Assembly (NCBI GenBank): GCA_001777575.1
Contig: MFEL01000010.1
Coordinates: 84,661 to 148,660 of the forward strand
Length of the DNA: 64,000 bases
Reading direction: 5' to 3'
DNA from: Candidatus Doudnabacteria bacterium RIFCSPHIGHO2_01_FULL_46_24
Lineage (GTDB): Bacteria > Patescibacteriota > Doudnabacteria > UBA920 > O2-02-FULL-48-8
How positions within the stretch are numbered: position 1 is the first letter of the stretch; every line of letters starts with the position of its first letter. This document shows, piece by piece, positions 1,797 to 55,284 of this stretch. The notes beneath the pieces are model-generated. The model made no database searches and was not told the origin of the DNA. It saw nothing but the letters and a program-made list of their open reading frames with translations. The translations under genes and the position numbers were made by a program.

Positions 1797-2246
1797 CTAG
1801 CTTCGAGCTGAGCGGCGCTTTCTGCCCTTTTTATAAACCTTGGTTAATTCCTTTGCTGTCCCAACCCAAAATTGCTGCGCCTGTCTTACCTGTCCCGTAA
1901 CCAATCGCCGTTTGAGCTCGCCGGGTTTATGATTAATCTTCCACAAGCGGTCAATTACCAATTTGTAGCCTTCGCCAAAGGATTGATATTGTTCGCTTAA
2001 CTTGGCTATTGTCACCTCGCTCATGTTTAGCTGTTTGCGAATATCAAAGTATCTATATCCTTCGTCGAGCATTCTAATTGCCTCCAAGCGCTTGGAGAGC
2101 ATTTTGATTTCGGTTCTGGTCAAAATGTTTCGGAGGAATTTCCTTACTTCGTCCTTCGTTTCAAGCAAAGTAACCGCCTGCCACAGCTGATTGAGCATCT
2201 GTTCATCACGCTCCAAGGGAAGTTTTTTTCTGGAAATTTTAGTCAT
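1797..2246 (-). CDS. TrpR-like DNA-binding protein (YerC/YecD family), paralog 1
   Basis: The track ORF 1797..2435 has an implausible hydrophobic N-terminal extension. The internal Met (MTKISRKKLPLERDE...) gives about 150 aa with the TrpR/YerC-like core (LSKRLEAIRMLDEGYRYFDIRKQLNMSEVTIAKLS). The other two paralogs also start MTKISRR/MAKFS. Confidence 0.6.
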   Translation of the reverse strand: MTKISRKKLPLERDEQMLNQLWQAVTLLETKDEVRKFLRNILTRTEIKMLSKRLEAIRMLDEGYRYFDIRKQLNMSEVTIAKLSEQYQSFGEGYKLVIDRLWKINHKPGELKRRLVTGQVRQAQQFWVGTAKELTKVYKKGRKRRSARS

Positions 2247-2255
2247 AATTCTTAA

Positions 2256-2282
2256 CCACATTACGATATAGTATTGTAGTAT
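2256..2282. promoter_or_regulatory. Upstream copy of the same box; likely operator in the TrpR-like paralog 1 promoter region
   Basis: Identical 24-nt sequence to 1762-1788, located 10-35 nt upstream of the start codon. Confidence 0.5.
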
Positions 2283-2705
2283 TAGTATAACATATCTTAG
2301 TTTAGCAAGATAAGAGCCGGCATAAATTAATAAAAATTCATCTTGACCAGGCGTTTTGCTTAAACTACCAAAAAGATATAAAATCAAGTCAATACCGGCG
2401 GTACAATTATCTGTGAAGTCACCGGATGATTGCAAGACCCGCCGCCTAGTATTCTAAAAGCACGGAGGAAGCGATTCTAGAACCGCCGCCCTTACCCGAA
2501 TAGGCACGCTCGTGCCGCAAAAATTCGGGCCAAGCGTGCTAGCCGCCTCTACTGACGTTCGTCAGCAAGCGGCTTTCTCTATCCCAATTTCACCATATTT
2601 TACCATTAATTTTTGATGTTCAACCTATCGCTTGAGATAATCGTTCCGCCAAGGCTTTACAAAGCTCAACAAGTCTGTTAAGATTTTTGCTCAAGGAGGA
2701 GTGCT

Positions 2706-5652: not shown

Positions 5653-6300
5653 CTACCACCGCATCGAAAGTCCTCGGTCAATCCGTGCCAGCAGTTGTTC
5701 TCGTTGCGGAAAAGCAGGCATCTTGGCCAAGAATTCCTTCGCCGCCTCAGTCCGACGCTGTGGAACCGAATCAATCACCATTTTCCTTAAATCCCCAACC
5801 ACGCCTGGTATGCGCTTCTCCCACCAATCCAGACTGTGCTGACCGCCCGTGAGTTCGTAACTGAAGAAATAGAACGCCGCCTCTGGATCAAGACGGATTG
5901 CCTGCCGAAACACGCCATGAGCCCAATACTCGCCCTGATAGTGGTCATACATGACCAGGGCCCAATATGGATCAGGGTGCATCGCCTCCAGCAACCTGTT
6001 CTCGACCCACGGCTGGTCCAGGAACGGCGCCACACATCGGAAAGCCTCACGAGGATTTTCGAAGATCTTTTCAGATACAGGCTGGCTGCCTTCGGCGCAG
6101 TTGTCGGGCATCAGCTTGAGCGCCTCGACGCGCGATTCTTCGAGCTTGCGCTGCGCGTTTCGGCTTGTCCTGAGCGCGAGAAAAGCAAAAACTACCAGTA
6201 GTGCCATGGCCAGGACCGTCACAATTCTCGCTCCCCGATCCATTGCCTGATGAACTGTCATACACACTCCTTGAGGTTGTCCAAGCCTAAACTCTAGCAA
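5653..6300 (-). CDS. Hypothetical membrane-anchored protein in a GC-rich island
   Basis: ORF with an N-terminal hydrophobic segment (IVTVLAMALLVVFAFLAL). No recognisable family. Local GC is clearly higher than in the flanking genes. Confidence 0.3.
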   Translation of the reverse strand: MLEFRLGQPQGVCMTVHQAMDRGARIVTVLAMALLVVFAFLALRTSRNAQRKLEESRVEALKLMPDNCAEGSQPVSEKIFENPREAFRCVAPFLDQPWVENRLLEAMHPDPYWALVMYDHYQGEYWAHGVFRQAIRLDPEAAFYFFSYELTGGQHSLDWWEKRIPGVVGDLRKMVIDSVPQRRTEAAKEFLAKMPAFPQREQLLARIDRGLSMRW

Positions 6301-6388
6301 ATCAACAGGAGCTGGTCAAGTCTGCGGTCTGCAGTTCGAAAAAAGCCGAGGCCACTCAAGGGGCGGCCCCGGCAGCACGGCGAGAGAA

Positions 6389-6898
6389 TCAGCGCTTCTT
6401 AGATCCGGTCGCCAGACTGCTCGAGTCCCAGTTGTCCGGGAACACATGAATGTCAAAAACCAGCCGGTACCCGAAGTGCGATACCTCAAGCGTACGCTCG
6501 ACAACCAGTGCCACAAACCGCATCGATCTGAATCCTCCCTGCGTCACGCCTCTGATGAGATCAAGCGCGGAATGGGGCTCCGAACCGTTCCACGACGTAT
6601 CGCCTGATCTCCAGAAGAAGCCCAGCAAGCCTTCGCACACGAGATGGAGACGCTCGTCGTATGCAAATTCCACTTTTCCAAGGCCATAGTGAGTATCCGA
6701 GTATGGAGCCGCCTTCTTCTCCAAATCAAACTTGACTTTGGAGAACCGACGAGCGGTTGCGTGATGGACCTCGGTTGACCACCACTTCTCAACGAACTCG
6801 ATCCTCTTCGCTTGAGATATCTTGGGTGTGGGCCCAAGCCTGCCGCTTAATCCTGCCTTAGTGATCTCATGCCCCCAGGACTGCCAAAGCAGATCCAC
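6389..6898 (-). CDS. Hypothetical protein in a GC-rich island (GTG start)
   Basis: ORF only. A good RBS+ATG lies at about 6936-6953 but in another frame, which hints at a frameshift or gene decay. Confidence 0.3.
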   Translation of the reverse strand: MDLLWQSWGHEITKAGLSGRLGPTPKISQAKRIEFVEKWWSTEVHHATARRFSKVKFDLEKKAAPYSDTHYGLGKVEFAYDERLHLVCEGLLGFFWRSGDTSWNGSEPHSALDLIRGVTQGGFRSMRFVALVVERTLEVSHFGYRLVFDIHVFPDNWDSSSLATGSKKR

Positions 6899-7690
6899 GA
6901 ACCAGGGGTACTTGACGTAGAGCGCGGTGCCTGTCGCGCCATTTCGGTCCTCCTTTGGGCCATTTAGGCGTTAGGGTTGTCTCGCTGCGGCCATCTGGGC
7001 GACAGCGGCTTTGGATAAGCTAATTATTATAGGCTGAAAATGATTCAAGAGTCAAAAAATAAGAAAAACATTCTACCTTTCTGCTCGTACGAGCAAAACA
7101 GTAGAATGTCATTACACTAAAAAATATCACCCAAGCCGAAACAGACGCAAAAACCTCAAGGGTTATTCCGTCTGTATTCGGTCAAGAGTTAGTCCACTGC
7201 CTCCGGCGGCAACATGCGCCTCAATACCGGCGGTACGCAGACGCAATTTGCGTCATGTGATAATTTACATATTTACGTTTACTATCACGTTACTAATCGT
7301 GGTAGTAAATGCACTATAAATATTTTTCGTATGTTCACGCTGTCGAAAAAAGAGATGAGGACGCCTCGTCGTGTTCAGATAGTGTAGGTCTGTTTCGGCT
7401 CCTGACGGTCCATGTAAATCCACCGGGAGCTTGCCCGTCGGTAGGTGAATCGGCTGTTGTCGAAGCCGTCGGCGATGCGAACCGCTCCATGAACTGGTCG
7501 TCACTGAGTTGTGCTCGATAGCATCGGCGCGGCGCCGGAGTGCCCTGGTCAATTCCAGCCTGGTTGGCGACGCATAATGTCTAAAAAATCTCATCCCGTC
7601 CCCGCGAGCTTGCTCGATTTTTTATATCCTTTTTCAACAACTTCGAACATGCCTCACGATATTATAAGTGAAAAGGGCTAACCTTAGCCA

Positions 7691-7730
7691 AAATAAACAC
7701 CTCAACCACGGTTGAGGTGTTTAGTGAATG
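7691..7730 (-). terminator. Rho-independent terminator of metK (AACACCTCAACC-gtgg-GTTGAGGTGTT then TTATTTTGG)
   Basis: Perfect 11-bp stem followed by a U-rich tract on the minus strand just after the metK stop. The same module recurs at 55243-55283. Confidence 0.7.
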
Positions 7731-7737
7731 GCCGCAT

Positions 7738-8709
7738 TCACTCGTCCCACTTAAAACCGTTGCCAAAATGGCCGTAGCGGGCTGTCTGTTCGTACTGAGG
7801 TTTGCGCAAGTCGAGAAAATCTATGATCCCCTTGGGCGTTAAGTCATAACCCTCAATGGGCATCTCTTTGCCGTCCACAATCACTGTGGCCTGCAAGGGC
7901 TCAGCCTTGCCGATGGCATAGGCCAAATACGCATAAACTTCCTTGGCATCGTGCTTGCGAAGGCAGTCCACGGCAATTTTCCTGGCCATGTAAGCGGCGC
8001 TCCTGTCGACCTTAGTCGGGTCTTTGCCGCTGAAGCATCCTCCGCCCACCGGGATTCTGGGTCCATAGTTGTCAATGATAATCTTGCGTCCGGTCAGTCC
8101 AGTGTCAGCATCAAAGCCGCCAATCTGCCAGTCCCCAGTCGGATTGCAATATATCCCGGTTTTCTCAAGACTTAACTGCCGGTTATTAGCCCATGCCTTC
8201 ACGTCAGCTGTCAGGATTTCTTTGCTGACGTTTTGAAAACTGGCTACAATTGCCGAAATCTGCCCGCTTTGGCTGTCCAAAGTAATCTGAGTTTTGCCGT
8301 CATTTGCACTGCCGTGTTTTTCGAAAATGCTCCTGTTTAATTCACGGGCCAGCATAACTTCCAGCGGCATCAGTTCCGGAGTTTCGCCGCAGGCGTAGCC
8401 GACCATAATACCCTGGTCTCCTGCACCGCCCGCGTCAACGCCGCGCGCGATCTGGGGCGATTGCTCGACGATGTTTACCTGCACTCCATATTTGTTCCCC
8501 AAAAGACGGTGGACAATTTCGCGGACATTGACGTAACCGGAAGTGGTGATCTCGCCCGTGACCGTGATGATGCCATGCCCGCCCATGGTTTCCACGGCCA
8601 CGCGCGAATGCGGGTCTTGCTCTAAGAGTTCATCCAAAACCGCGTCCGAGACTCGGTCGCAAATTTTGTCCGGGTGCAGGGGGGAAACTGATTCTGCGGT
8701 TCTGATCAT
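7738..8709 (-). CDS. metK: S-adenosylmethionine synthetase, compact 323-aa form
   Basis: ESVSPLHPDKICDRVSDAVLD and GGGCFSGKDPTKVDRSAAY motifs. Confidence 0.9.
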   Translation of the reverse strand: MIRTAESVSPLHPDKICDRVSDAVLDELLEQDPHSRVAVETMGGHGIITVTGEITTSGYVNVREIVHRLLGNKYGVQVNIVEQSPQIARGVDAGGAGDQGIMVGYACGETPELMPLEVMLARELNRSIFEKHGSANDGKTQITLDSQSGQISAIVASFQNVSKEILTADVKAWANNRQLSLEKTGIYCNPTGDWQIGGFDADTGLTGRKIIIDNYGPRIPVGGGCFSGKDPTKVDRSAAYMARKIAVDCLRKHDAKEVYAYLAYAIGKAEPLQATVIVDGKEMPIEGYDLTPKGIIDFLDLRKPQYEQTARYGHFGNGFKWDE

Positions 8710-9641
8710 GCCTTATTTTTCGCCGATAATTTTTGAGCGCAAAATTTATACAAGATCATTTTCATCAAAAGCTTGGCTGCCATGAAGTCCGGGCCTGGCA
8801 AGCCTTTGAATGGCGACAGCTCCACCAAATCCATGCCGACGATATTTTTTTTGGCGCAAACGGTTCTAATGATAGGCAAAATATCGTCCCACATTGGCCC
8901 CCCGGGCTCCGGAGTGCCGGTGGAAGGAATCATGGACATGTCAAAGCAATCAATGTCAAAACTGATGTAAACGTTCTCTCCAAGCGACGAGGCGATTTCT
9001 TCCGCCCGCCAACTCTTGCGGTCCTTGGCCAAAAAAACTTTCACTCGGTCAGGATTATTTTGCCAAAATTCGTATTCATTCTTGTTGAAATTTCTGATGC
9101 CGACCAGAGTCGCTTTTCTCAAATTGGGCAAATCCAAAGAATATTTCAGCCACGCCGCGTGGCTGAAATCACGGCCCGAAGAACGGTCATGCAAATCCAT
9201 GTGCGCGTCAAACACCAAGACCGAGACATCCTTAAATTTTTCGTTTATGGCCTGGGCAAAACCATAGCTGATGCCATGTTCCCCGCCGATCACGATTGGA
9301 AATTTGTTATCCGAATACAGCTGCAGAATAAGATTCTTAAGCAATGCGCAGGCCTCCATGGGATCAGCCGGCAAACGAGGCTGATCGCAAGTCCATATCT
9401 TGACTCGGTTGAAATAATCGTCCAACAGCTCATCGTCAAAACTTTCGACCTGATAAGACGCCTCGATCAAACCGCGAGGCCCGTTGGCCGCGCCATGACC
9501 AAAAGTCACTGTGCCTTCAAAGCCGAAAGGCACAATCATCGCTTCTGATGATTTGTAATCAGGCAAGACCGGAGGCAGCGGCGGCAATTCCGGGCCCAAA
9601 AACCCCATGGGCTTAAAGCCCTTAGTGAAATCAAAGTTCAT
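8706..9641 (-). CDS. speB: Agmatinase / ureohydrolase (arginase family)
   Basis: Metal-binding motifs GGEHGIS, FDAHMDL, SFDIDCFD and GMDLVE. Confidence 0.8.
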   Translation of the reverse strand: MNFDFTKGFKPMGFLGPELPPLPPVLPDYKSSEAMIVPFGFEGTVTFGHGAANGPRGLIEASYQVESFDDELLDDYFNRVKIWTCDQPRLPADPMEACALLKNLILQLYSDNKFPIVIGGEHGISYGFAQAINEKFKDVSVLVFDAHMDLHDRSSGRDFSHAAWLKYSLDLPNLRKATLVGIRNFNKNEYEFWQNNPDRVKVFLAKDRKSWRAEEIASSLGENVYISFDIDCFDMSMIPSTGTPEPGGPMWDDILPIIRTVCAKKNIVGMDLVELSPFKGLPGPDFMAAKLLMKMILYKFCAQKLSAKNKA

Positions 9642-10627
9642 TGATTCAAAACGTAAGCGAAAATAAGCGGTGCTACAATTGTGGCGTCTGACTCAATCAC
9701 AAACCGAGGCGTCGTGACATCCAGCTTGCCCCAGGTGATTTTTTCATTGGGCACCGCGCCGCTGTAAGAGCCGTAAGAGGTGGTGGAATCCGAAATCTGG
9801 CAAAAATATCCCCAGAGCTTGCAGTTAACCTTCAGGTCCTGTTGAATCAGGGGCACCACGCAAATAGGAAAATCTCCGGCAATGCCGCCGCCGATCTGGA
9901 AAAATCCGACTAATTTTTCCTTAGTATTTTCCAGATACCAGTCAATCAGCGCGGACATCTGCTCCAGGCCGGACTTGATGATGTTGATATTCTTAATGTT
10001 TTCACCGTAGTAATTCTGTCCGCGGCCGCGGGTTAAGGCGACAAAAATGTTGCCCAAGGTTGAATCCTCGGTGCCCGGCGTCCAAATCGGCAAGTTTTTT
10101 TCGCAAGCGGCCACGACCCAGGAATCCTTGGGGTCAATCTGGTAAAATTCTTTGAGCATGCCCTCGCGGATCATCTGATACACATATTCATAATGAAAAA
10201 AACGCTCGCCTTTGTCATCGGCGCGTTTCCAGAGCTTGATGATCTGCTTTTCTATCCGCCGCATGGCTTCCTCTTCCGGAATGGTAGTGTCAGTTACCCG
10301 GTTGAGCCCCTTTTTCAGAAGTGCCACTTCATCATCAGGAGATAATTGCCGATAATGCGGGACGCGAACATAATGGTCGTGGGCGACCAGATTAAAAATA
10401 TCTTCTTCCAAGTTAGCTGCGGTACAGGTAATGGCGTGAACCTTGTCCTGGCGGATCATTTCCGCCAAAGACAGCCCGAGCTCCGCCGTGCTCATGGCCC
10501 CGGCCAGAGTAACCATCATTTTGTTGCCATCATTTAGAAACTTATCGTAAGCTTCCGCGGCATCAACAACTACCGCGGCGTTGAAATGCCGGTAGTGATG
10601 TTTGATGAAATCTTTTATTGTTCCCAT
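9638..10627 (-). CDS. Deoxyhypusine synthase-like protein (homospermidine synthase-like)
   Basis: The MMVTLAGAMSTAELG and HAITCTAANLEED regions are typical of the DHS family; 329 aa. Confidence 0.8.
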   Translation of the reverse strand: MGTIKDFIKHHYRHFNAAVVVDAAEAYDKFLNDGNKMMVTLAGAMSTAELGLSLAEMIRQDKVHAITCTAANLEEDIFNLVAHDHYVRVPHYRQLSPDDEVALLKKGLNRVTDTTIPEEEAMRRIEKQIIKLWKRADDKGERFFHYEYVYQMIREGMLKEFYQIDPKDSWVVAACEKNLPIWTPGTEDSTLGNIFVALTRGRGQNYYGENIKNINIIKSGLEQMSALIDWYLENTKEKLVGFFQIGGGIAGDFPICVVPLIQQDLKVNCKLWGYFCQISDSTTSYGSYSGAVPNEKITWGKLDVTTPRFVIESDATIVAPLIFAYVLNQ

Positions 10628-10649
10628 GTGAGCGGTTAAAAGTTAATAT

Positions 10650-12062
10650 TTACCATCCAAACTGTCTGCCCACGTCCTCTGCCGTCTCTCTCCTGCGCGC
10701 CACTTTGATTTCCCCATTTTGAGCAATAAGTTTCGCAGGCGAAGACAATAAGCAATGATGCGAAGCCAAGGCGTCCTGATACGCGCCAGTGTCAAAAAAC
10801 GCCACAAACAGCTCGTCACAATCCTCCAGCCGCGGCATGGGAATGTAGTCACCTCCAGCCGTGTATTTGTCATCCGAATCACAAGAAGAGCCGGCAAACC
10901 ACACCGGCTGCAGCTTGCGCGAATTCATGCAGTTGACCGGCACCACATGCCATTTCTGGTGGATGGCCCAGGTGTCCAAAAGATCATTCATGAAACTGCC
11001 ATCCACGACATACCATTTTTTATGGTTTTTGACGCTGACGTCTTTTTCGGTAATGATTTTATATATCGTGATCTGCGCCGGCGCTGCCACGTAACTCCCC
11101 CACTCCACAATTAAGTTCGGATGCCGGATACCCAGCTTGTCGCACTCTTTTTTGGCGGTTTTGACAATCTGATGAATCAAGCTCTTGCCGGAATAAAAAT
11201 GCTTTTTCTTCTCAAACGGAATGCCAGCCCCGCCGCCGATATCCAAGATCATCAACCCCGGGTTTTTTTCTTTCATCCCGGCAAACAACCGTAAAGCCCG
11301 TTTCAGGGGCTTGGTAAACCCCTTAATAGTGATGATCTGTTTGGAAATATGATAATGCAAAGTGGAAAGATTGCGAACCTTGCCGATCTTAAGCAATTCT
11401 TCTTCGGTAAATCCGTAACGGTTAAACTTCTTATCCCAATGCGCCTGGACTTTGATATCCAAATTCACCCGGATCCCCACCTCGCCCTTAAATTTCTTCA
11501 ACCGCTCCAGCTCGTTGTAGTCCTCGATGATCGGCACGACGATCAAGCCTTTGCCTTTCAGCTCCTCAATTAAGCTGATGTATTTTTCCGTTTTGGGACC
11601 GTTACAGATGACCCTGATCTTGCGGTTAAACTTGTCCTGCTCAATCATCCTCTTTACCAGATACAGCTCATTGGCCGAAGCTACGTCCAAGTTTGCGCCC
11701 TCGGCCACGGCCGGCAGCACGAATTCCTTGGTCTGGTTGGCCTTCATGGCATAATGGTAATAAAACCGGCCCTTGTAGCCTAAAATTTTGATATAGGCGT
11801 TAAAAGTTTCGATCAGGTCCCGCACGCGGTTCTCCATGATAGTTGGAAACACGATCTCAGTCGGGCTGCCGTATTTTTTTACCAAGTCATGGACATTGTA
11901 CTGGTAATTACCTTCCCTCACGATCAATTCGCCGTCAGGACCAATATCAAAATTCTGGGTGTTGAATTCTTCCAGCCCCAGCCGCCAAAATTTTTTGAAA
12001 CCGTTCTTCTTTTTTCTCTTCCTAACCGTTTGGTTCTTTTTCACTCGTTTATGATAAAGCAA
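10650..12062 (-). CDS. speA: PLP-dependent decarboxylase, fold III; probable arginine decarboxylase
   Basis: YAMKAN PLP-lysine motif, ILDIGGGAGIPF, and CDSDD substrate motif. Adjacent agmatinase supports the arginine-to-agmatine step. Confidence 0.7.
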   Translation of the reverse strand: MLYHKRVKKNQTVRKRKKKNGFKKFWRLGLEEFNTQNFDIGPDGELIVREGNYQYNVHDLVKKYGSPTEIVFPTIMENRVRDLIETFNAYIKILGYKGRFYYHYAMKANQTKEFVLPAVAEGANLDVASANELYLVKRMIEQDKFNRKIRVICNGPKTEKYISLIEELKGKGLIVVPIIEDYNELERLKKFKGEVGIRVNLDIKVQAHWDKKFNRYGFTEEELLKIGKVRNLSTLHYHISKQIITIKGFTKPLKRALRLFAGMKEKNPGLMILDIGGGAGIPFEKKKHFYSGKSLIHQIVKTAKKECDKLGIRHPNLIVEWGSYVAAPAQITIYKIITEKDVSVKNHKKWYVVDGSFMNDLLDTWAIHQKWHVVPVNCMNSRKLQPVWFAGSSCDSDDKYTAGGDYIPMPRLEDCDELFVAFFDTGAYQDALASHHCLLSSPAKLIAQNGEIKVARRRETAEDVGRQFGW

Positions 12063-12085
12063 TCGCAGGCATTGTCAAGCGCTTT

Positions 12086-12424
12086 TTACCTTTTTTTCTT
12101 TGCCAAGCGCGCACCTCGGCGCTGTAAAGTATCGCGCTTGTTTTTGAACTTTGTGATTTGCTCCCGAAGCTTGGGCATAACCAAATCAATTGCCGCGTAC
12201 ATATCTTCACCCAAAGCATCGGCGCGCAAAACTTTCCCGCCGGCAAACATGGTTACTTCGGCGCGAAAGACCAGGCCGCTCTGATGGTGGCGGTCGCGCT
12301 CCAGCTCGACCTTGGCCTCAATCGGGCCAAAAATAATCTTGCCCAGTCCCCCGATTTTTTCCTCGACGTACTGCTTAATCGAAGGCGTTAAATCCAGATG
12401 CGTGGCTTTGATTGATATGTTCAT
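12086..12424 (-). CDS. hpf: Ribosome hibernation promoting factor (HPF/RaiA)
   Basis: MNISIKATHLDLTPSIKQYVEEKIGGL... matches the S30AE family. Confidence 0.8.
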   Translation of the reverse strand: MNISIKATHLDLTPSIKQYVEEKIGGLGKIIFGPIEAKVELERDRHHQSGLVFRAEVTMFAGGKVLRADALGEDMYAAIDLVMPKLREQITKFKNKRDTLQRRGARLAKKKR

Positions 12425-19561: not shown

Positions 19562-19594
19562 ATACTTGCATACGGGACAGTATGAAAGTGTTAT
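19562..19594. promoter_or_regulatory. Inverted-repeat box CTTGCATAC-GGGACA-GTATG(a)AAG downstream of paralog 2
   Basis: Near-identical copy of the upstream box, with one mismatch. Confidence 0.5.
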
Positions 19595-19986
19595 AACCGC
19601 CCACCCTTGTACCATAGATTCCTTCGTTCCAGCCGGTTCTGTCTTTCCGTTCGCTTTTGTTGAAAAATTCTTTCTAACTCTAATAGCTTTTGTTCGGCGG
19701 CTCTAAATCCCTTGCCAGCCCGCTCCAGAATGTTGCTGACCGTGGAAATGGTTCGTTCGGTTACCTTAAGATGATTCATGATTGATTGATAAGTCTCACC
19801 AGCCAATAGCCGATGGACAATTTCCAGTCGTTTGGCAAACATCTTGTATTCTGTATGCGTAAACAAATCCTTAAACAGTAGTTTTATTTCTTCTTTGTCT
19901 CTGATCATGGCAAAAATTGACCAGAGGTTACTGACATAATTACCCATGAGCTCGGGGTCAACAGGCCTTCTCGAAATTTTTGTCAT
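19591..19986 (-). CDS. TrpR-like DNA-binding protein (YerC/YecD family), paralog 2
   Basis: Internal start MTKISRRP...; core FAKRLEIVHRLLAGETYQSIMNHLKVTERTISTVS. The track ORF extends 18 codons further upstream. Confidence 0.6.
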   Translation of the reverse strand: MTKISRRPVDPELMGNYVSNLWSIFAMIRDKEEIKLLFKDLFTHTEYKMFAKRLEIVHRLLAGETYQSIMNHLKVTERTISTVSNILERAGKGFRAAEQKLLELERIFQQKRTERQNRLERRNLWYKGGRL

Positions 19987-21987: not shown

Positions 21988-22362
21988 CTTTAAGTAAGCG
22001 AGCAGTCGCCCAGCCCCAGTTTGCAAAAACTGGAGCTGGGAGGAAAGTCCGAACACGTTTGTTGGATTGAGTCTCATGAGTTAATTCAGCATCAGGTAGC
22101 GGGTAACGCCCGCCAAAGGGTAACCTTAGAGTTGCGAACAGAAACGACCCGGTTAAGTCCGGCTGAAACGCGCTAAATACTTACCTGACAGTGCAATGTC
22201 GAATAGGTCCTGTACCGGAGCGAAAGCGACTGGTACCAGGGCGGGTAGACAGCTTGAGCCTAACAGCAATGTTAGGCCTTAGATAGATGATTGCTTCCCC
22301 AGCTCCAGTTTGCAAAAACTGGAGCTGGGTCAGACAGAATTCGGCTTACAGCTTGCTTAAAG
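21988..22362 (+). ncRNA. rnpB: RNase P RNA (bacterial type)
   Basis: P4 5' strand GGGAGGAAAGTCCGAACAC and P4 3' strand ACAGAATTCGGCTTACAG. A 12-bp P1 stem forms between 21988-21999 (CTTTAAGTAAGC) and 22351-22362 (GCTTGCTTAAAG). GGGTAACGCC and ACAGAAACGACCCGG elements are present. Confidence 0.8.
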
Positions 22363-22367
22363 AGCAT

Positions 22368-22398
22368 ATAAAAATCGCCATTCTTGGCGATTTTTGTT
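22368..22398. terminator. Bidirectional terminator (AAAAATCGCCA-ttct-TGGCGATTTTT) between rnpB and rpsI
   Basis: Perfect stem with A-run and T-run flanks. Confidence 0.7.
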
Positions 22399-22412
22399 CC
22401 AGTAGCGGATCT

Positions 22413-22934
22413 TTAACGCTTGGAAAACTGCGGAGCGCGGCGGGCTCTCTTCAAACCCGGCTTCTTTCGTTCTTTTACGCGCGGGTCGCGGGTCAGAAAG
22501 CCATGCTTTTTAAGGAGCCGGCGACTTTCCGGGTTCATGGCAATGATGGCGCGGGCAATGGCGTGGCGCATGCTTTCCGCTTGCGCGTGTATGCCGCCGC
22601 CATGGATCTTGCTTCGGACATTGATACTTTTAAGAATGCCTACCGCATTGAGGGGCTGCTGGACAATAACGCGCAGATCCTCAGTGGCAAAATATTTCTC
22701 AAAGGGCAGTTCATTGACGGTAATCGTGCCGTTGCCGCCTGACAGCAAAACTTGCGTGACCGCGGTCTTGCGGCGGCCGACTGCGTGAAAATGTTTGCCT
22801 GGAGCGATTTTGGGTACATGGGGCTTAGCTTCCTCAACAGCGATCGGCTGAACTGCGGTTTGAATTTGTAGCTTGGCCGCGACTCTCTTGCGGACAACTG
22901 GTTTTTTGTGCGCTGGTTTTTTAGCTATTGTCAT
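22413..22934 (-). CDS. rpsI: 30S ribosomal protein S9 with a roughly 40-aa Lys/Ala-rich N-terminal extension
   Basis: C-terminal ...GGGIHAQAESMRHAIARAI...GFLTRDPRVKERKKPGLKRARRAPQFSKR. Confidence 0.9.
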   Translation of the reverse strand: MTIAKKPAHKKPVVRKRVAAKLQIQTAVQPIAVEEAKPHVPKIAPGKHFHAVGRRKTAVTQVLLSGGNGTITVNELPFEKYFATEDLRVIVQQPLNAVGILKSINVRSKIHGGGIHAQAESMRHAIARAIIAMNPESRRLLKKHGFLTRDPRVKERKKPGLKRARRAPQFSKR

Positions 22935-28476: not shown

Positions 28477-29277
28477 TTAAGAAGTGATTCCGGCCAATTC
28501 CATGATGTATTTCTCGGGATTGTTCAAAAAATCCAGGCTTTCAGGGTTCGTCACTCCGGTCTGGTACATAGGCTGGCTGCCGCTGATGGCCAGTTTCGAC
28601 ATAAATTTGGTGTCAATCATGCGCACTGGCGGCAAGTCTTGATAATTGGAATTTGGCACAAACTTAAACAGTTCAACCTCGTCAGAGACGACATAGTAGG
28701 CCATACCGTGATGGATCTTGATCGGCTCGTATAAAGAAACAAACTTATCAGCGCACCAATTGGCCGTGACCAAAACTTCTGAGGCGGTGTTGACCATGAT
28801 ATGCCCGTAATTCGGGGGGTAAATTATTTTGTCTCCTGCCTTGCCGCGGATGGCCAAGACATTCAGCACCTTGTGATAGTCTGGTTCGGTTTTCTGGAGT
28901 AGAAACAGCGCTTCGCCATGCAAGACCTCATAAACTTCCGGGTAAGCAATCGGTTGCGTTAACCCGGGTTTGTACGGATGGTAATGGCCGAGCATTTTGT
29001 TGAATTCCTGCCCCAGCATCGTCGGCGGCGTGACGGTAATGTCATATCTGATGTTGTTGTCGCGGATGGTTTGCACATGTTCGGGCATGTGGATGTTGCG
29101 GTACATGTAATACATTTCCTTGCGCTCTGATTGGAAAGAAGGATCCATAAGTACCGGCACCATTTCGGCAAGAGTGCGCACTGCCGGCTGGATGTCCCTA
29201 AGCGGCGGGTTAAACTTGAGGCGAAAGTCGTTAGTCACTTCAATTGGCAAACTCGAAATTTGTTCAAGGTTTATCAT
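28477..29277 (-). CDS. Cupin-type glucose-6-phosphate isomerase-like protein (archaeal cPGI family)
   Basis: PTMLGQEFNKMLGHYHPY...YPEVYEVLHGEA matches the cPGI signature (...GxEF..TxGHxH...ExY..L.G) seen in Pyrococcus/Thermococcus PGIs. Confidence 0.55.
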   Translation of the reverse strand: MINLEQISSLPIEVTNDFRLKFNPPLRDIQPAVRTLAEMVPVLMDPSFQSERKEMYYMYRNIHMPEHVQTIRDNNIRYDITVTPPTMLGQEFNKMLGHYHPYKPGLTQPIAYPEVYEVLHGEALFLLQKTEPDYHKVLNVLAIRGKAGDKIIYPPNYGHIMVNTASEVLVTANWCADKFVSLYEPIKIHHGMAYYVVSDEVELFKFVPNSNYQDLPPVRMIDTKFMSKLAISGSQPMYQTGVTNPESLDFLNNPEKYIMELAGITS

Positions 29278-31175
29278 ATGGTAGTCGCCTTAATTCTTCG
29301 GACCCCGGCGGACACAGCTTCTTCTTTCTTAATCTTAAATTGGCCAAGCTCGCCGGTGTGCGCAACATGCGGGCCACCGCAGAATTCGCGGGAAAAAACC
29401 GAACCGTCTTTATTATATATGCTATACACGCTTACGACCTCGCCATACTTGGCCCCAAACTCGGCCAAGGCGCCCGATTTCTCAGCCTCGGCTTTAGGCA
29501 TCTCTTCCCTCTTGACCTCAAGGTTCTCTGAAATTTTTTGATTGACGATTTTTTCAGCTTGCTCCAATTGCTCTTTCGTCATTTTCTCGGGATGCGAAAA
29601 ATCTATTCGCAGCCGCTCGGAGCTGACATTTGATCCCCTCTGAAGCACATGGCTGCCCAAAACCTGACGCAATGCCGCCAAAAGCAGATGATGTGCCGTA
29701 TGATGCTTAATAGTCTGCGGTTCGTGGTCCACCAGCCCGCCCTTGAACATGCCACTTGATGCTGTCTGTGAAAGCTTTCTATGTTTTTCTTTGTATTTCT
29801 CCAATTCCACTTCAAATCCTTGAAGTAAACCAATATGCAAATACCCTCTTGATTCCGCAACTTCTTTCGTTAACTCCAACGGGTATCCGAAAGTCTGAAA
29901 TAAATCAAAAGCATCCTTTCCTGAAAGACCGTTATGCTCCTTAATCCTTTTCTCAATCTCTTTTTCACCTCTTTCCAAAGTTTCCATAAATTTCATTTCT
30001 TCCGCTTCAAAAACTTCCTGTATTTTTTTTGTTTGTTGTGAAAGCTCCGGATAAGCGTCATTATAGATGTCAGTAACAACCCGGACTAACGGGTAAAGAT
30101 TTGAAAATCCTGGTGCAAATTTATAGGCATTAAATATGGATCGGCGTAAAAGTCTTCTGAGAACGTAACCGCGTTCTTTATTGCTAGGCAATACTCCGTC
30201 TCCAATCATAAAAACAGCCGCCCTGACATGATCAGCCACAATCCTCATTCGGGATTTTTGATCAATTTCAACTGAACCATAATCCCAGCTGTAATTCTTA
30301 CGAAGTGCGTCAAAAACCCCCTTTAATACATCAACCTCAAAAATATCCGGATCATTATTCGATGCCGCAGCTAACCTCTCCAGTCCGCCGCCGAAATCCA
30401 CATTTTGCTGCTTTAGCTTCTCGAAACCTCTCTCGGTCTTTACATATTCCATAAAAACCGAGTTTCCAATTTCCAAAAAACGGCCGCAATCGCAATTAGG
30501 GTGGCAATTTTTGCCGAATTTTGGGTCGTGGGGCGTTCCAAAATCATAAAACACTTCAGAATCAGGCCCTCCCGGCTCCCCAACCGGCATGTTCGCAGGA
30601 ACGCCGGTTCTGCTCCACCAGTTCTTTTTTGCTCCGTAATAAAAAATTCTGCCTTCCTGCATTCCTTCTTCGCTCCCCTTTTCTTCTGTAATCAGTTCAA
30701 CAATTGGGGCAGGGATTCCGCCTGTCTCGAACAAATTTTGCCAAATCGCCGGGGATTCTTCATCTCGGGGAATGTTATTCTCTGGATCTCCGACAAACAC
30801 CGACACATACAGACGATCGGCAGGCAAACCGACACCTGTTTCTTTATTTGTCAAAAACTCAAAAAACCAGGCAAGCTGGTCTTTTTTCCAATAATCGCCG
30901 AGAGACCAATTGCCAAGCATTTCAAAAAAAGTTGTGTGCCTGTTGTCGCCGACTTCTTCTATATCTTCTGCGCGAAAACTTTTCTGTGAATTAACCAGTT
31001 TCGTACCGTCCGGATGCTTTTCTCCAAGCAAATATGGAACGAGTGGCTGCATTCCTGATCCAATAAACAAGGTGCTCGAGTCTCCTTCAGGGATCAGTGG
31101 CGCGGAAGGGATTACCTTGTGGCCCCTTGCTTGGAAAAATTTAAGATATTTTTCTCTAAGCTCGTGCGATGTCAT
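29274..31175 (-). CDS. alaS: Alanine--tRNA ligase, compact 633-aa form lacking the C-Ala domain
   Basis: N-terminal MTSHELREKYLKFFQARGHKVIPSAPLIP...; editing-domain HTAHHLLLAALRQVLGSHV and ...CGGPHVAHTGELGQFKIKKEEAVSAGVRRIKA at the C-terminus. Confidence 0.9.
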   Translation of the reverse strand: MTSHELREKYLKFFQARGHKVIPSAPLIPEGDSSTLFIGSGMQPLVPYLLGEKHPDGTKLVNSQKSFRAEDIEEVGDNRHTTFFEMLGNWSLGDYWKKDQLAWFFEFLTNKETGVGLPADRLYVSVFVGDPENNIPRDEESPAIWQNLFETGGIPAPIVELITEEKGSEEGMQEGRIFYYGAKKNWWSRTGVPANMPVGEPGGPDSEVFYDFGTPHDPKFGKNCHPNCDCGRFLEIGNSVFMEYVKTERGFEKLKQQNVDFGGGLERLAAASNNDPDIFEVDVLKGVFDALRKNYSWDYGSVEIDQKSRMRIVADHVRAAVFMIGDGVLPSNKERGYVLRRLLRRSIFNAYKFAPGFSNLYPLVRVVTDIYNDAYPELSQQTKKIQEVFEAEEMKFMETLERGEKEIEKRIKEHNGLSGKDAFDLFQTFGYPLELTKEVAESRGYLHIGLLQGFEVELEKYKEKHRKLSQTASSGMFKGGLVDHEPQTIKHHTAHHLLLAALRQVLGSHVLQRGSNVSSERLRIDFSHPEKMTKEQLEQAEKIVNQKISENLEVKREEMPKAEAEKSGALAEFGAKYGEVVSVYSIYNKDGSVFSREFCGGPHVAHTGELGQFKIKKEEAVSAGVRRIKATTI

Positions 31176-36246: not shown

Positions 36247-36283
36247 AAATACTAAAATACTGTAAAGTATTTAAGTATTGTAA
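36247..36283. promoter_or_regulatory. Inverted-repeat box AAATACT-GTAA-AGTATTT(AAGTATT) downstream of paralog 3
   Basis: Identical to the upstream copy. Confidence 0.5.
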
Positions 36284-36804
36284 TTACTCGCTAAAAGCTT
36301 ATCTAATTCCGAATATAACTTGCGCTTAGCACCCAACTTCTCCAAAATTTCTTTCATCTGGCGTTTTTCTTTCTGGGAAGACGACTTTGCCCAGTGCTCC
36401 AGCATGATCTGCGGCCAGAAGTACATCGGGTACTTGCGTTTGAGAGCTGATAATCTTACCGGCTTTTCCGCTTCGCCTAAATTCTTTCTTTTTTGCCTTG
36501 TTCTCTCCAAAACCAGCCTGTATCCTTCTCCCGACTGCTGCGTCCAATGGTTTACCCGGGCAATAGTTGGCTCGCTCACCTTCAACGCTTCTCTGATGTT
36601 CTGATACGTCTCGCCGTTGAGCAGTAGTTCGGCGATCTTAAGCCTCTTGGCAAGCATTTCCATTTCCTGCTTGCCCAAAAGGTCTGTGAGCAATTGCGCG
36701 GCCTCACGCGTATTTTGAATCGCCGCAATAGCTGTGCACAAACTCATAATCATTTCCTGAGTATCTTTATAACTCAATTTTGCTTTCAACGAAAACTTGG
36801 CCAT
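36271..36804 (-). CDS. TrpR-like DNA-binding protein (YerC/YecD family), paralog 3
   Basis: LAKRLKIAELLLNGETYQNIREALKVSEPTIARVN core. Confidence 0.6.
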   Translation of the reverse strand: MAKFSLKAKLSYKDTQEMIMSLCTAIAAIQNTREAAQLLTDLLGKQEMEMLAKRLKIAELLLNGETYQNIREALKVSEPTIARVNHWTQQSGEGYRLVLERTRQKRKNLGEAEKPVRLSALKRKYPMYFWPQIMLEHWAKSSSQKEKRQMKEILEKLGAKRKLYSELDKLLASNYNT

Positions 36805-43501: not shown

Positions 43502-45232
43502 TCAGGGTATAACATTTCCTTTTTCGTAAGCTTCAACCTCGGCTTGCGGCAGGATCGTGGCTTTGGGGTAGCGGGCTTTTTTGTAGGAGACAGCTGTGAA
43601 CATGCTCAATACGCCATTTTCGACTTTGTAAATCGCAGTTGACTGGTCGCCCTTAAGCACGGTGCCGTCTTTGGGCGGGAAGGGCACGCCCGTTGGGATT
43701 TGGTTGAATTCTTCCGCCCCGATCATCAGGCGCGGGAAGTTGCCCACGCTTCTTTGTTGGAACACGAACGCGGACACAAACTGTTTTTGCCCATTCTTAA
43801 ACCAAAAGATGCCGGTGTCCCCTTTCAGGCTGATGGAAATCGATTCCGGCGGGTAAACAAACTGGCCCGAAGGAATACCCAAGACTTCGGCGTCTGTCAA
43901 TTTCATCAGCTTGGCAAACGAAAACTTGCGCGCCACAAACACTTCGTAAGAAATCGGGCGCTTCAAGCCGGCGTCAACCAGATACACGGTCAAATCGGTT
44001 TCGCCCGTGATGAGCGTGCCGTCAACCGGGGCAACAAACGAACCGGTTTCGTAAGAGTCAACTTCAGCTTGGGGCAGGGTCACGACATTGGCAAACGAAA
44101 ATTTGCGCTGGACGAATACCGGATAAGAAATGGCGTGCTTTTTGGTGTCTTCAATCAGATAAACGGCCGGACTGACATCACCTTTGATGAGAGTGCTGTC
44201 AAGCGGCGGCATGGGTTTTTCCGAAATATAGGAATCGAACTCGGTCTGCGACACGCTGATGACATTATTCGTGTTGATTTTGCGCTGTGTCGCCACGAAT
44301 TGAGAAAACGGCCGTTTGGCGCCATTGTCAATGACGTAGAAATTCGGATCGCCGACTAACTGGATGACTGTGCCATTGGGATACTTAAACCACAGCGAAT
44401 AATATCGCCAAAAATTGTAATTGCCGTTGAAGACGTGCGGTGTATAACGGTAAAGCGCGGCTGTGGCAAAATTGCCCAAAGAAAGGCTTTGGGTTGCGGC
44501 CACGTTGTCAAAGCCGCCTAAAGTGTTGTCCAAGATGATCGTATCCCCTTTCCGCGCGGTTCTGGCAATGGGCCTGCCAAAAGTCTGGCTGGAGGCATCC
44601 ACGCCCGGGCCGCGGCCCACACGCACGCCGCCGACTTCAGTGCGGAACGATTTCATTAGAGAAGCAGCCGCGCCCAGCCACCGGCTGCCGGAAGAATCAA
44701 AACTGCCGAACAGCTGCCGGTAAAAACCCAAAAAGATTTCGCCGCAGCCTTCGTAATCCGGGCAACCAAACCCCAAGGCGCGGTCCAGGCGGTTCTGCAA
44801 ACTGTTGCCGTTAAAATTGCCCAAAATCAGGCTTTGCTCTTTTTGCAGCATGACCAGCATCACCTGCGGATTTAACCCCTTGGAAACCGAGGCGTCATAA
44901 ATCAACTCGGAGGCAGTGCGCAGCCGGCCCAAATTGGGACTGGGGTCCTCGAGCGCGACCTTGGTCAGGGTGTCCGGCTCTTTGAGTTTGAGCAAAAAAT
45001 CCTGGCTGGTGTCGGCCAGCAAAGAGTTGTGCTGCTCGAAAAATTTCTGAATGCCGGCAGCCGAGCCAAAAGTGCCAACATCGGCAAAAGCCTCGTCAGG
45101 GATCAAAAGGCTGGGATTGAAAGCCGGATCAATCGCGCCCTGTCCTAAGGCAACGAGAGGCGCGGAAATCACAAATCCTAAAGTCAGAACTACCAATATT
45201 TTGGCTTTTGAATTTTGACTTTTTAATTTCAT
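43502..45232 (-). CDS. Secreted protein with four C-terminal tandem repeats of about 45-50 aa, shared with the adjacent S8 protease
   Basis: Signal peptide MKLKSQNSKAKILVVLTLGFVISAPLVALG. Repeats such as YLVDAGLKRPISYEVFVARKFSFAKLMKLTDAEVLGIPSG. 4-nt overlap with the upstream gene. Confidence 0.5.
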   Translation of the reverse strand: MKLKSQNSKAKILVVLTLGFVISAPLVALGQGAIDPAFNPSLLIPDEAFADVGTFGSAAGIQKFFEQHNSLLADTSQDFLLKLKEPDTLTKVALEDPSPNLGRLRTASELIYDASVSKGLNPQVMLVMLQKEQSLILGNFNGNSLQNRLDRALGFGCPDYEGCGEIFLGFYRQLFGSFDSSGSRWLGAAASLMKSFRTEVGGVRVGRGPGVDASSQTFGRPIARTARKGDTIILDNTLGGFDNVAATQSLSLGNFATAALYRYTPHVFNGNYNFWRYYSLWFKYPNGTVIQLVGDPNFYVIDNGAKRPFSQFVATQRKINTNNVISVSQTEFDSYISEKPMPPLDSTLIKGDVSPAVYLIEDTKKHAISYPVFVQRKFSFANVVTLPQAEVDSYETGSFVAPVDGTLITGETDLTVYLVDAGLKRPISYEVFVARKFSFAKLMKLTDAEVLGIPSGQFVYPPESISISLKGDTGIFWFKNGQKQFVSAFVFQQRSVGNFPRLMIGAEEFNQIPTGVPFPPKDGTVLKGDQSTAIYKVENGVLSMFTAVSYKKARYPKATILPQAEVEAYEKGNVIP

Positions 45233-47235: not shown

Positions 47236-47237
47236 TT

Positions 47238-47969
47238 CTATTGATGGTTATATGGGGCGTACTTCCCAGTCAAGGCTCTCCACTTAATAATAAACAAATC
47301 GCGCAGAGATTCCAAAAAGGCGGTTGGAGGGACAGTGCTTTCCCCGGGATCGTTGCGGATAATGGGCACGGCTTTTATTCTATAACTGAATTTCAAGGCA
47401 ATTGCAAGCAATTCCATGTCAAACGCCCAACCGTGGATAGTCAGATTTCGAAAGATCTGCCTCGCGGCTCCAGCGCGAAAAGCTTTGAACCCAGCCTGCG
47501 TATCGTGAATATGGGTAACCAGCACGATCTGAATCAAATAATTGCTGAGTCGAGAGAGTATGGTTCTAAACCAAGGCTGGTGCGAATGGTGGACGGGATC
47601 CAAATAACGATCGCCTATCACGACTTCCACCCCGGATTCCAAATACGGCCAAAACTTTTCGATTTCGGAAATCGGCGTGGCATCGTCGGCATCCATAAAC
47701 ATTATATACTGACCCGTAGCTTCCGAAACGCCACGCTGGACAGCCGCTCCCTTGCCCTTGCTCCATTCCTCCAGAATCCTTGCGTTCTGGACAGACGAGC
47801 TTTCCATTTCCTTTACAACCCTGGCAGTATGATCGCGGCTGTTGTTGTCCACGACAATGATTTCGTAACCGTAATTTTGTTTCTCGAGATATTGATCCAC
47901 ATCCTCCAGCGTTTTTCTAATCCGTTTCTCTTCGTTGAAGGCTGGGATGATTACTGAGAGTTTTATCAT
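47238..47969 (-). CDS. Glycosyltransferase family 2 (polyprenol-phosphate sugar synthase, DPM1/GtrB-like)
   Basis: MIKLSVIIPAFNEEKRIRKTLEDV...IIVVDNNSRDHT...FMDADD, from the internal start. Confidence 0.75.
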   Translation of the reverse strand: MIKLSVIIPAFNEEKRIRKTLEDVDQYLEKQNYGYEIIVVDNNSRDHTARVVKEMESSSVQNARILEEWSKGKGAAVQRGVSEATGQYIMFMDADDATPISEIEKFWPYLESGVEVVIGDRYLDPVHHSHQPWFRTILSRLSNYLIQIVLVTHIHDTQAGFKAFRAGAARQIFRNLTIHGWAFDMELLAIALKFSYRIKAVPIIRNDPGESTVPPTAFLESLRDLFIIKWRALTGKYAPYNHQ

Positions 47970-48960: not shown

Positions 48961-49120
48961 AAGACCAGTAATAAATGAAAAAACCGAATCGCTTTCGGTT
49001 TTTGTTTGGGTTTGTGTTATTTCAATTTAAGAATAAAAAATAAAAACCAGCTTGGCAAATCAGCCGTTTTAAGCTCATTTACCAAGCTGGGTCTGTTTTA
49101 TCCCCATGACGCGGCCTATA

Positions 49121-53990: not shown

Positions 53991-54000
53991 AGTTTGGAAA

Positions 54001-54063
54001 AAAGAGTTGTGGTGACGAAATCCGCCGGCTGGCAGAAAGCTATCGCCACCACGATCCCTTGCG
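54001..54063 (-). terminator. Rho-independent terminator after the GC-rich secreted-protein gene (GGTGGCGA...TCGTCACC then CTCTTTTTTCC)
   Basis: Seen directly on the minus strand. Confidence 0.55.
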
Positions 54064-55020: not shown

Positions 55021-55242
55021 CTGTGCCCCTCCAAGGTCAGAAATCTAACTTAGGTTGTGAAAATGCCCCGCTCAAAGATACCTGAGCAGAACAGCCTATC
55101 ATACACTAACAATGCTCCTTTTGTCAACCCGCGAATTTAGCATATTGGCCTGATTGCTTATGCTCAATGGCTGAAGGCCACATATTAGCTGGCGTTTTTA
55201 GCTCTTTTTAGACAAATCGTCAATAAATTGTGGATGTAATAA

Positions 55243-55283
55243 CAAAACACCTCAACCGGAGTTGAGGTGTTTATTTTGGCTAA
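55243..55283 (-). terminator. Terminator module AACACCTCAACC-ggag-GTTGAGGTGTTTATTTTGGCTAA; near-identical to the metK terminator
   Basis: About 40 nt near-identical to the reverse complement of 7691-7735, differing only in the loop. U-rich on both strands. Confidence 0.65.
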
Positions 55284-55284
55284 T

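Follow-up and report, generated by a model that had tools for sequence, protein, structure and literature searches.

A Putative SpeY-Type Homospermidine Operon With a Divergent Deoxyhypusine Synthase Homologue in a Candidatus Doudnabacteria Genome

The SpeY Route and Related Systems

SpeY is a homologue of deoxyhypusine synthase (DHS) that joins two molecules of agmatine to N1,N9-bis(guanidino)homospermidine (G44G), from which a SpeB-like ureohydrolase then forms homospermidine (PMC10981699; PMC13625781). CdmS, the SpeY of T. thermophilus, uses agmatine only, and neither putrescine nor spermidine (Kobayashi 2024, PMC10981699). SpeYs from several phyla all accumulated G44G in agmatinase-deficient E. 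coli, whereas human DHS, plant DHS and the bacterial homospermidine synthase (HSS) made none in the same setting, and the purified SpeBs associated with SpeY cleave G44G with no detectable activity on agmatine (Li 2026, PMC13625781). The source genomes of the tested SpeYs encode arginine decarboxylases (ADCs) of three folds, with either agmatinase or AguA/AguB as partners, the latter pair being an alternative module in SpeY systems (Li 2026, PMC13625781). Here we describe a locus in a stretch of 64,000 nucleotides (the window) from Candidatus Doudnabacteria bacterium RIFCSPHIGHO2_01_FULL_46_24 (contig MFEL01000010.1, positions 84,661 to 148,660), a member of the Patescibacteria or Candidate Phyla Radiation (CPR), in which an ADC gene, a DHS-like gene and a ureohydrolase gene of the arginase family probably make sym-homospermidine from arginine via the agmatine-dependent SpeY route.

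The SpeY route is proposed because the gene set of the locus equals that of the published SpeY clusters, which consist of ADC, speY and speB genes. By gene set, the locus can be likened to a cluster of Winogradskyella algicola, which belongs to another phylum and likewise combines SpeB and SpeY with an ancestral ADC of the alanine racemase (AR) fold without the four-helix bundle; the SpeY of this organism makes G44G and its SpeB is G44G-specific (Li 2026, PMC13625781). In Anabaena sp. PCC 7120, as far as the account of Burnat 2018 in PMC13625781 goes, a DHS homologue is found with an AR-fold ADC and SpeB, and this homologue is essential for homospermidine synthesis. The cyanobacterial SpeY differs in belonging to another subfamily (NF001980) with a long C-terminal tail, and the Anabaena ADC is of the long form. 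Bacterial HSS (EC 2.5.1.44) has the same end product as is predicted here, but it has a saccharopine-dehydrogenase fold and uses putrescine as substrate; no HSS is present in the window, while one lies beside a relative of the DHS-like gene in another genome (see below).

Organisation and Conservation of the Operon

The locus comprises four tightly packed minus-strand genes with open reading frames (ORFs) of 470, 329, 311 and 323 aa. The first is a short ADC-like gene (10650..12062) with the domains PF02784 and PF00278 (Orn_Arg_deC_N and Orn_DAP_Arg_deC). It is followed by a DHS-family gene (9638..10627; PF01916) predicted to encode a SpeY-type agmatine-coupling, i.e. G44G or “diagmatine,” synthase, by an arginase-family gene (8706..9641; PF00491), the predicted product of which is a ureohydrolase acting on G44G (“diagmatine”) and not an ordinary agmatinase, and by metK (7738..8709; three S-AdoMet synthetase Pfam domains). 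As read from the junction sequences, a spacer of 22 nt separates the ADC gene from the DHS-like gene, and ATGA overlaps are present at both the DHS-like/agmatinase and the agmatinase/metK junctions; the agmatinase-family gene is translationally coupled to the DHS-like gene. A promoter-like site (TTGACA/16 nt/TATCAT; 12051..12078, minus strand), matching the consensus at 11 of 12 positions, is located between the stop codon of the preceding gene and the ADC gene, and a terminator-like hairpin with a 13-bp stem and a subsequent T run (7694..7723, minus strand) begins 15 nt past the metK stop codon. Both are consensus matches only, and promoter-like sites are no more frequent in the region than in shuffled sequence. 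The gene overlaps, together with the promoter-like site and the terminator-like hairpin that bracket all four genes, suggest that these form one transcription unit.

The start of the longest ADC ORF, TTG at 12062, falls within the promoter-like site, so that GTG at 12044 is the likelier start; it corresponds to the 464-aa product given for the ADC gene on an identical public contig (L001). With the end of the -10 box 6 nt ahead of this GTG, the ADC transcript may have little leader or none. An Rfam scan revealed no riboswitch in or near the operon.

The block is not restricted to this genome. On three long CPR contigs (L166, L167 and L169) the gene order is murC, the gene of the ribosome hibernation factor HPF/YfiA (HPF), short ADC, DHS-like, arginase-family and then SecA, and the ADC, DHS-like and arginase-family genes are also visible on a partial CPR contig (L168). 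The HPF-headed three-gene block is conserved in CPR, and since the order recurs on the three long contigs, the clustering is not due to chance. Compared with these relatives, the window encodes a DHS-like protein of 76-89% identity, a decarboxylase of 63-73% and a ureohydrolase of 69-76%; HPF and MurC reach 66-72% and 59-63%, respectively.

An earlier note on this DNA, made from the sequence alone, had described a coherent polyamine operon adjacent to metK, and the Pfam families, the overlaps and the recurrence of the block in CPR contigs bear it out. All peptides that it quoted (YAMKAN, CDSDD, GGEHGIS, FDAHMDL and MMVTLAGAMSTAELG) are present, the ORFs are found at the stated positions, on the minus strand, and its assignment of the middle gene to the DHS family agrees with the PF01916 match and with the catalytic Lys and the NAD motifs, which are intact on alignment. 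It had further pointed to a lack of speD and speE. By Pfam and tblastn neither gene, nor an HSS, pot or efp gene, is present in the 64 kb window, and the HSS domains PF03435 and PF16653 occur in no window ORF of at least 150 aa; the window is a part of the genome, so that these absences, and with them the claim regarding speD and speE, hold for the 64 kb and reach no further. The adjacency to metK, also stressed in the note, is real but not a conserved trait, as it is absent in L166, L167 and L169, where SecA follows the block. In the window, metK and two ORFs without Pfam hits intervene between the block and SecA. A role of metK in the pathway was rejected, as the relatives do not share the adjacency and no step depends on S-adenosylmethionine (SAM); metK is probably co-transcribed, but as a passenger outside the predicted pathway.

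With 323 aa, MetK is short and scores 291.5 on TIGR01034, against a cutoff of 309.4. It is a shortened MetK that covers 365 of the 377 positions of this model, the gaps falling into the N-terminal and the central domain. The interval between metK and SecA (5653..7737) has a raised G+C of 0.52 and, besides the two ORFs that match no Pfam family (5653..6300 and 6389..6898), contains ~840 nt in which there is no long ORF; the relatives carry a shorter, different insert at this site. At the other end of the operon, the HPF gene (12086..12424, minus strand; PF02482, TIGR00741) is directly upstream of the ADC gene and occupies the same place in L166, L167 and L169, which may reflect plain vertical synteny or a link between ribosome and polyamines.

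A Third Lineage of the DHS Family

The DHS-like protein matches PF01916 over residues 15-325 (E 6e-41, 141 bits against a cutoff of 27). When its AlphaFold2 model (pLDDT 82.4, pTM 0.85) was compared with the PDB by Foldseek, the top matches were all DHS structures (E 6e-12 to 1e-9, TM 0.64-0.72). The protein is a genuine member of the deoxyhypusine synthase superfamily, and the DHS fold is confirmed. In an alignment with human DHS, the reference sequence of which was checked to be identical to the PDB chains, K329, E323, W327 and D238 correspond to K301, E295, W299 and D188 of the window protein, while the GGG motif corresponds to G246-248. The four residues are invariant in 35 of 35 aligned sequences of the clade that the window protein forms with its homologues (the window clade), and the three glycines are present in 33-34 of the 35. 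The equivalents of human D243 and D316 are N193 and Y288. These two positions were considered as discriminators between DHS and SpeY, but were dropped, since Sulfolobus DHS has T/L and Pyrococcus DHS has D/L.

None of the curated DHS subfamilies is close. The DHS equivalogs are not reached (NF002006, 111.5 vs 434; NF002630, 97 vs 364; TIGR00321, 94 vs 304), the highest-scoring NCBIfam model is NF001980 (“homospermidine biosynthesis protein”) with 119.6 bits, and all DHS and SpeY equivalogs fall between 67 and 120 bits. As controls, the two SpeY sequences used for comparison, CdmS and Cylindrospermum SpeY (CsSpeY), both taken from the Kobayashi 2024 supplement, clear the cutoffs of their respective models (CdmS with 545 on NF002699, CsSpeY with 588 on NF001980) and also reach 180-320 bits on archaeal DHS models. 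Since no curated subfamily is close to the window protein, while CdmS and CsSpeY pass their own models, the protein is assigned on its sequence to a third, more divergent lineage of the family.

To which side of the family this lineage leans was assessed by comparing the motifs of the window clade, CdmS and CsSpeY with those of human, Pyrococcus (7CMC) and Sulfolobus (8PUT) DHS. Three motifs are common to the clade and the two SpeYs: T[GA]AN, which is TAAN in the window protein and TAGG or TGGT in the DHSs; R[IV]xD, which is RVTD in the window protein and RIGN in the DHSs; and DS[ST], which is DST in the window protein and DGS in the DHSs. Furthermore, the clade, CdmS and CsSpeY, but not the DHSs, have an insertion of 8-9 residues after GGG and have lost His288. 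An acidic stretch, DTTIPEEE in the window protein and DTYIDEEE in CdmS, is not found in the DHSs either; this acidic patch includes the entrance residue that was proposed to bind the guanidinium group of the second agmatine (Kobayashi 2024, PMC10981699). Pairwise identity to the window protein amounts to 27.6% for CdmS and 24.8% for CsSpeY, compared with 18.8-22.7% for the DHSs. With bona fide DHS (1DHS, 7CMC, 8PUT) the window protein has the fold (TM ~0.7), the NAD glycine motif, the Lys of W-G-K and Glu323 in common, but it differs in lacking TAGG, RIGN, DGS and His288 and in the additional insertion; a gene for an IF5A-type substrate was not found in the window.

A neighbour-joining (NJ) tree, calculated from Poisson distances with 200 bootstraps and containing only two characterised SpeYs, splits true DHS from all other sequences with 100% bootstrap, and likewise separates all references from the window clade with 100%. 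CdmS and CsSpeY lie along the path that leads from true DHS to the window clade. The shared motifs, the identity values and the tree place the lineage on the SpeY side, and are supportive, although not proof, of its grouping with SpeY rather than with true DHS.

The Decarboxylase and the Ureohydrolase

The decarboxylase matches PF02784 with 86 bits and PF00278 with 26 bits, and its translation contains HYAMKAN, the motif of the lysine that binds pyridoxal phosphate (PLP). The speA equivalogs, both of which describe the long form, are not reached (NF003763, 178.1 vs 369; TIGR01273, 161.2 vs 624), the lysA model TIGR01048 gives a similar 163.5 bits, also below its cutoff, and the best sequence matches in the PDB are diaminopimelate decarboxylases (LysA). 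A MAFFT alignment with two long SpeAs shows that an internal insertion of ~105 aa and a C-terminal extension of ~75 aa are missing, whereas the N-terminal segment of SpeA and the motifs CDSDxK, GAYQD and LDxWAIxQ are retained. These sequence features fit a candidate short, “ancestral-form” AR-fold ADC, a form that has been described previously (PMC8503589; PMC13625781). Homologues of 75-89% identity occur across CPR lineages, among them Doudna-, Gracili-, Peregrini-, Kerfeld- and Parcubacteria.

The ureohydrolase matches PF00491 (E 3e-56, 191 bits) and carries the Mn-ligand motifs GGEHGIS, FDAHMDL and SFDIDCFD. It barely passes the agmatinase equivalog TIGR01230, with 175.6 against 174.3. Nothing in the sequence separates a preference for agmatine from one for G44G, and we know of no published sequence signature of a G44G ureohydrolase (DUH). 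Most likely the enzyme prefers G44G over agmatine and would act after the DHS-like enzyme, an assignment by analogy for which we rely on the linkage within the operon and on the reasoning that a canonical agmatinase would starve SpeY of its substrate (Li 2026).

Distribution and Genomic Context of the Clade

Both for the DHS-like protein (84-92% identity) and for the decarboxylase (75-89%), the nearest homologues are encoded in metagenome-assembled genomes (MAGs) of Patescibacteria/CPR, from Nomura-, Doudna-, Parcu-, Gracili-, Peregrini- and Kerfeldbacteria. In a representative library clustered at 50% identity 334 clusters, mostly fragments from the same clade, match at E 1e-30 or better, and no named reference sequence was among the results of that search. 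At least 589 matches with ~65% identity to the window protein were obtained in GTDB species genomes; these span Acidobacteriota, Planctomycetota, Bacteroidota, Gemmatimonadota, Verrucomicrobiota, Chloroflexota, Myxococcota, Chlamydiota, Gammaproteobacteria and others. The matches listed in a metagenome scan with the DHS-like protein belong mainly to the ~65% clade, via the motif NEKITWGK, and not to close CPR relatives, and on plasmids tblastn found only haloarchaeal DHS of 25% identity. While the DHS-like protein is ~65% identical across phyla, the adjacent ureohydrolase reaches 32-35%. Judged by sequence, the clade is very large and slowly evolving, and no NCBIfam equivalog covers it.

Homologues of 76-77% identity are carried by DPANN archaea (Woesearchaeota and Nanoarchaeota; L002-L005 and L035); the neighbouring genes on these contigs, those for diphthamide synthase and Cdc6 among them, are clearly archaeal. 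On one of these contigs (L005) the DHS-like gene adjoins a gene for a pyruvoyl arginine decarboxylase (PvlArgDC). Because the proteins of CPR and DPANN are closer to each other (76-77%) than to those of other bacterial phyla (~65%), a transfer of the gene between the two domains is suggested. Gene exchange between CPR and DPANN was also suggested by Li 2023, who found speY clustered with speB and a neofunctionalised speD in Woesearchaeota and Diapherotrites (PMC10407285).

The survey of genomic neighbours drew on 171 related loci, and genes within 3 kb were considered for the 146 loci of the clade with usable flanks. Enzymes of agmatine metabolism lie near 27 of the 146 loci and are the only recurrent functional neighbours. 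Ten of the 27 loci have AguA, the DHS-like gene, a long SpeA and AguB, and in eight an agmatinase gene is accompanied by an AR-fold ADC of either length or, in two of them, by PvlArgDC. By contrast, EF-P or SpeD, for which queries verified against PDB entries were used, was found at 0 of the 146 loci. In a Caldilineaceae (L022) and a Chloroflexia (L020) genome, the genes for PvlArgDC, agmatinase and the DHS-like protein of the clade stand in a row. The same arrangement was reported for the assayed SpeY of Caldilinea aerophila (Li 2026, PMC13625781); a homologue search and a cluster look-up with the L022 protein gave only “Caldilineaceae bacterium” MAG proteins, and the C. aerophila protein was not among them.

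Two further loci deserve mention. In Saccharibacteria (L006; CAYHKM010000011.1, 4249-9008) the short ADC (72%) and the DHS-like gene (81%) are kept, and the agmatinase has given way to a pair of genes on the other strand, AguA-like and AguB-like, as in the alternative module of the SpeY systems. In Patescibacteria group bacterium RA.bin60 (L013; JAKLHJ010000006.1, 4535-6969) a gene for a bona fide HSS homologue of 481 aa (342 bits to PDB 2PH5, 309 bits to 4PLP) is placed 20 nt upstream of, and on the same strand as, a DHS-like gene of the clade that is 66% identical to the window protein. Such a pair is present in 1 of ~170 loci.

Proposed Pathway and Alternatives

In the proposed pathway, the short PLP-dependent AR-fold decarboxylase would convert L-arginine to agmatine. 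The DHS-family enzyme would then use NAD+ and Lys301 to oxidise agmatine, so that the 4-guanidinobutyl group is held as an enzyme-imine, and would pass this group on to a second agmatine at its primary amine, with reduction yielding G44G (caldomycin or diagmatine) and ammonia. Eventually, the Mn-dependent enzyme of the arginase family would strip off both guanidino groups as urea, leaving homospermidine. There would be no putrescine intermediate and no need for SAM, with metK as a passenger of the operon. Family-level identities, operon structure, the conservation of the block in CPR, catalytic residues and the features shared with SpeY are established directly, and from here we infer every substrate and product of the pathway. 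With the SpeY/CdmS pathway the locus has in common the three enzyme families (an ADC, a DHS homologue and a ureohydrolase of the arginase family), the Lys and Glu of the catalytic site, the motifs T[GA]AN, R[IV]xD and DS[ST], the insertion after GGG, the acidic entrance patch and, in the relative from Saccharibacteria, the AguA/AguB alternative. Most likely the operon is a CPR example of this known agmatine-dependent pathway and not a new system, and homospermidine rather than spermidine, as the earlier note had surmised, is its likely product, given the SpeY-type composition.

That note had the pathway run from arginine to agmatine and putrescine, followed by aminobutyl transfer. Such an order, with an ADC and a true agmatinase supplying putrescine and the DHS-like enzyme making homospermidine from two putrescines or from putrescine and a spermidine donor, in the manner of eukaryotic DHS and plant HSS, is unlikely. 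The ureohydrolase does pass the agmatinase model, if barely, eukaryotic DHS can make homospermidine from putrescine and spermidine (PMC13625781), and in L013 a putrescine-dependent HSS stands beside a DHS-like gene of the clade. However, CdmS consumed neither putrescine nor spermidine (PMC10981699), the tested SpeYs gave G44G, with homospermidine arising only when a ureohydrolase was present, and the SpeBs associated with SpeY are inactive on agmatine, whereas a canonical agmatinase would starve SpeY (PMC13625781). The window provides no speD, speE or other source of spermidine, and the acidic pair that holds spermidine in human DHS (D243 and D316) is replaced by N193 and Y288 in the window protein. 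The order given in the note is therefore probably wrong. A different doubt concerns the first step, for which the decarboxylase could be LysA-like or another AR-fold enzyme, so that the cluster would make a different amine. The lysA model scores between the two speA models (163.5 bits vs 178.1 and 161.2), the best PDB sequence matches are LysA, and some JGI annotations name homologues “diaminopimelate decarboxylase.” Nevertheless, these names are mostly “arginine decarboxylase,” the SpeA motifs and the N-terminal segment align to long SpeA, the CESxD of LysA is replaced by CDSDDK, and in CPR the gene is constantly linked to the DHS-like gene and a guanidino-hydrolase; another decarboxylase at this position would be most surprising.

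The DHS-like enzyme could also act on a protein, by attaching a 4-guanidinobutyl or 4-aminobutyl group of agmatine to a translation-factor lysine (that of EF-P in CPR, that of aIF5A in DPANN), with the ureohydrolase trimming the product to a deoxyhypusine-like residue. For Haloferax volcanii, a model with the same families, ADC, DHS and an essential agmatinase-like protein, and with agmatine as proposed donor has been put forward (Prunetti 2016, PMC5178350); it differs from the route proposed here in that the acceptor is a protein lysine and the genes cluster with aIF5A, and the model is itself unproven. The CPR and DPANN proteins share 76-77% identity, and DPANN do have aIF5A; the conservation of ~65% across phyla, compared with 32-35% for the ureohydrolase, is unusual; and the conserved neighbour HPF is ribosome-associated. 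On the other hand, searches with the PDB-verified queries found no EF-P or aIF5A gene in the window or the 171 related loci, the clade stands apart from true DHS with 100% bootstrap and lacks the DHS motifs including His288, and its neighbours are small-molecule agmatine enzymes, among which AguA/AguB suit free guanidino and carbamoyl amines better. To our knowledge no deoxyhypusine has been reported from bacteria, which we count against such a modification as well. We regard it as highly improbable, and the suggestion of the earlier note that an EF-P or aIF5A-like factor is modified finds no support, given that the window and the 171 loci yielded no such gene and that the protein splits from true DHS. 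The phylogeny of the DHS homologue, which the note had named as a check, separates the protein from true DHS and puts it on the SpeY side, albeit by a distance method and with two SpeYs. A broader variant is that the native reaction of the third lineage is something other than simple agmatine homocoupling, with a guanidinobutyl or aminobutyl group passed either to a protein lysine (EF-P, aIF5A) or to an amine such as homospermidine. It is hinted at by the tandem of HSS and DHS-like genes in L013 and by the unusually slow evolution of the clade, and may be considered quite improbable, if less so than the modification of a protein as such.

Several observations weigh against the SpeY route. With CdmS and CsSpeY the window protein shares only 25-28% identity; it widely misses the SpeY equivalogs (NF001980, 119.6 vs 450; NF002699, 91.6 vs 500) and is farther from these two SpeYs than they are from archaeal DHS. 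The position of human His288 is Asp (D252) in the window protein and Asn in the SpeYs, that of D316 is Tyr instead of Leu, and that of human Lys287 is Gly. The tree was built by NJ only and contains a long branch. In the neighbour survey 119 of the 146 loci have no agmatine neighbour, and homologues with 76-77% identity are found in DPANN archaea, where a DHS acting on aIF5A is expected. That any assayed SpeY is a member of the clade is likely, but by analogy, from the arrangement in L020 and L022. Finally, the HSS/DHS-like pair of L013 does not fit the published mutual exclusivity of HSS and SpeY, and leaves room for a chemistry of the lineage other than agmatine homocoupling. Against these points stand the gene set, the conserved block and the features shared with SpeY, so that the SpeY route via G44G is still the probable assignment.

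If this assignment holds, many CPR bacteria make a triamine via a route that needs only PLP and NAD+. Neither SAM nor putrescine would be required, which suits a minimal metabolism, and the newly defined diagmatine pathway would be extended to Patescibacteria. In public annotation the short ADC of CPR is a “hypothetical protein” and the DHS-like enzyme a “deoxyhypusine synthase (family protein),” and since there is no equivalog for the clade, the pathway would be missed or mislabelled in reconstructions of CPR, DPANN and many soil phyla. The most useful by-product of the analysis is the very large, conserved DHS-like lineage itself, which lies outside the curated models and is common to CPR and DPANN. 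Whether archaea have agmatine-dependent DHS homologues was raised as a question by Li 2026 (PMC13625781), and the close relationship of the CPR and DPANN proteins makes it directly testable; the DPANN homologues also raise the question of a separate DHS specific for aIF5A in those archaea.

Other Features of the Window

Apart from the operon, the window contains a class A bacterial RNase P RNA (21990..22364, plus strand; 119.6 bits vs a gathering score of 100), which is encoded on the strand opposite to that of almost every gene in the window; a spurious plus-strand ORF (22287..22742) overlaps it. A cell-surface gene cluster extends over 43502..59267, where G+C is raised up to 0.555. It includes a DUF11-repeat protein of 1563 aa (49734..54425), two further DUF11 proteins, a sortase (56792..57988), a subtilase (45229..47235) and a CAP-domain protein on the plus strand. 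Three paralogous genes of the Trp-repressor family (PF01371), all on the minus strand (1797..2435, 19591..19986 and 36271..36804), are found within these 64 kb of a small genome. At 28477..31175 (minus strand), a glucose-6-phosphate isomerase of the cupin type (PF06560), which is known from archaea, adjoins a short alanyl-tRNA synthetase of 633 aa.

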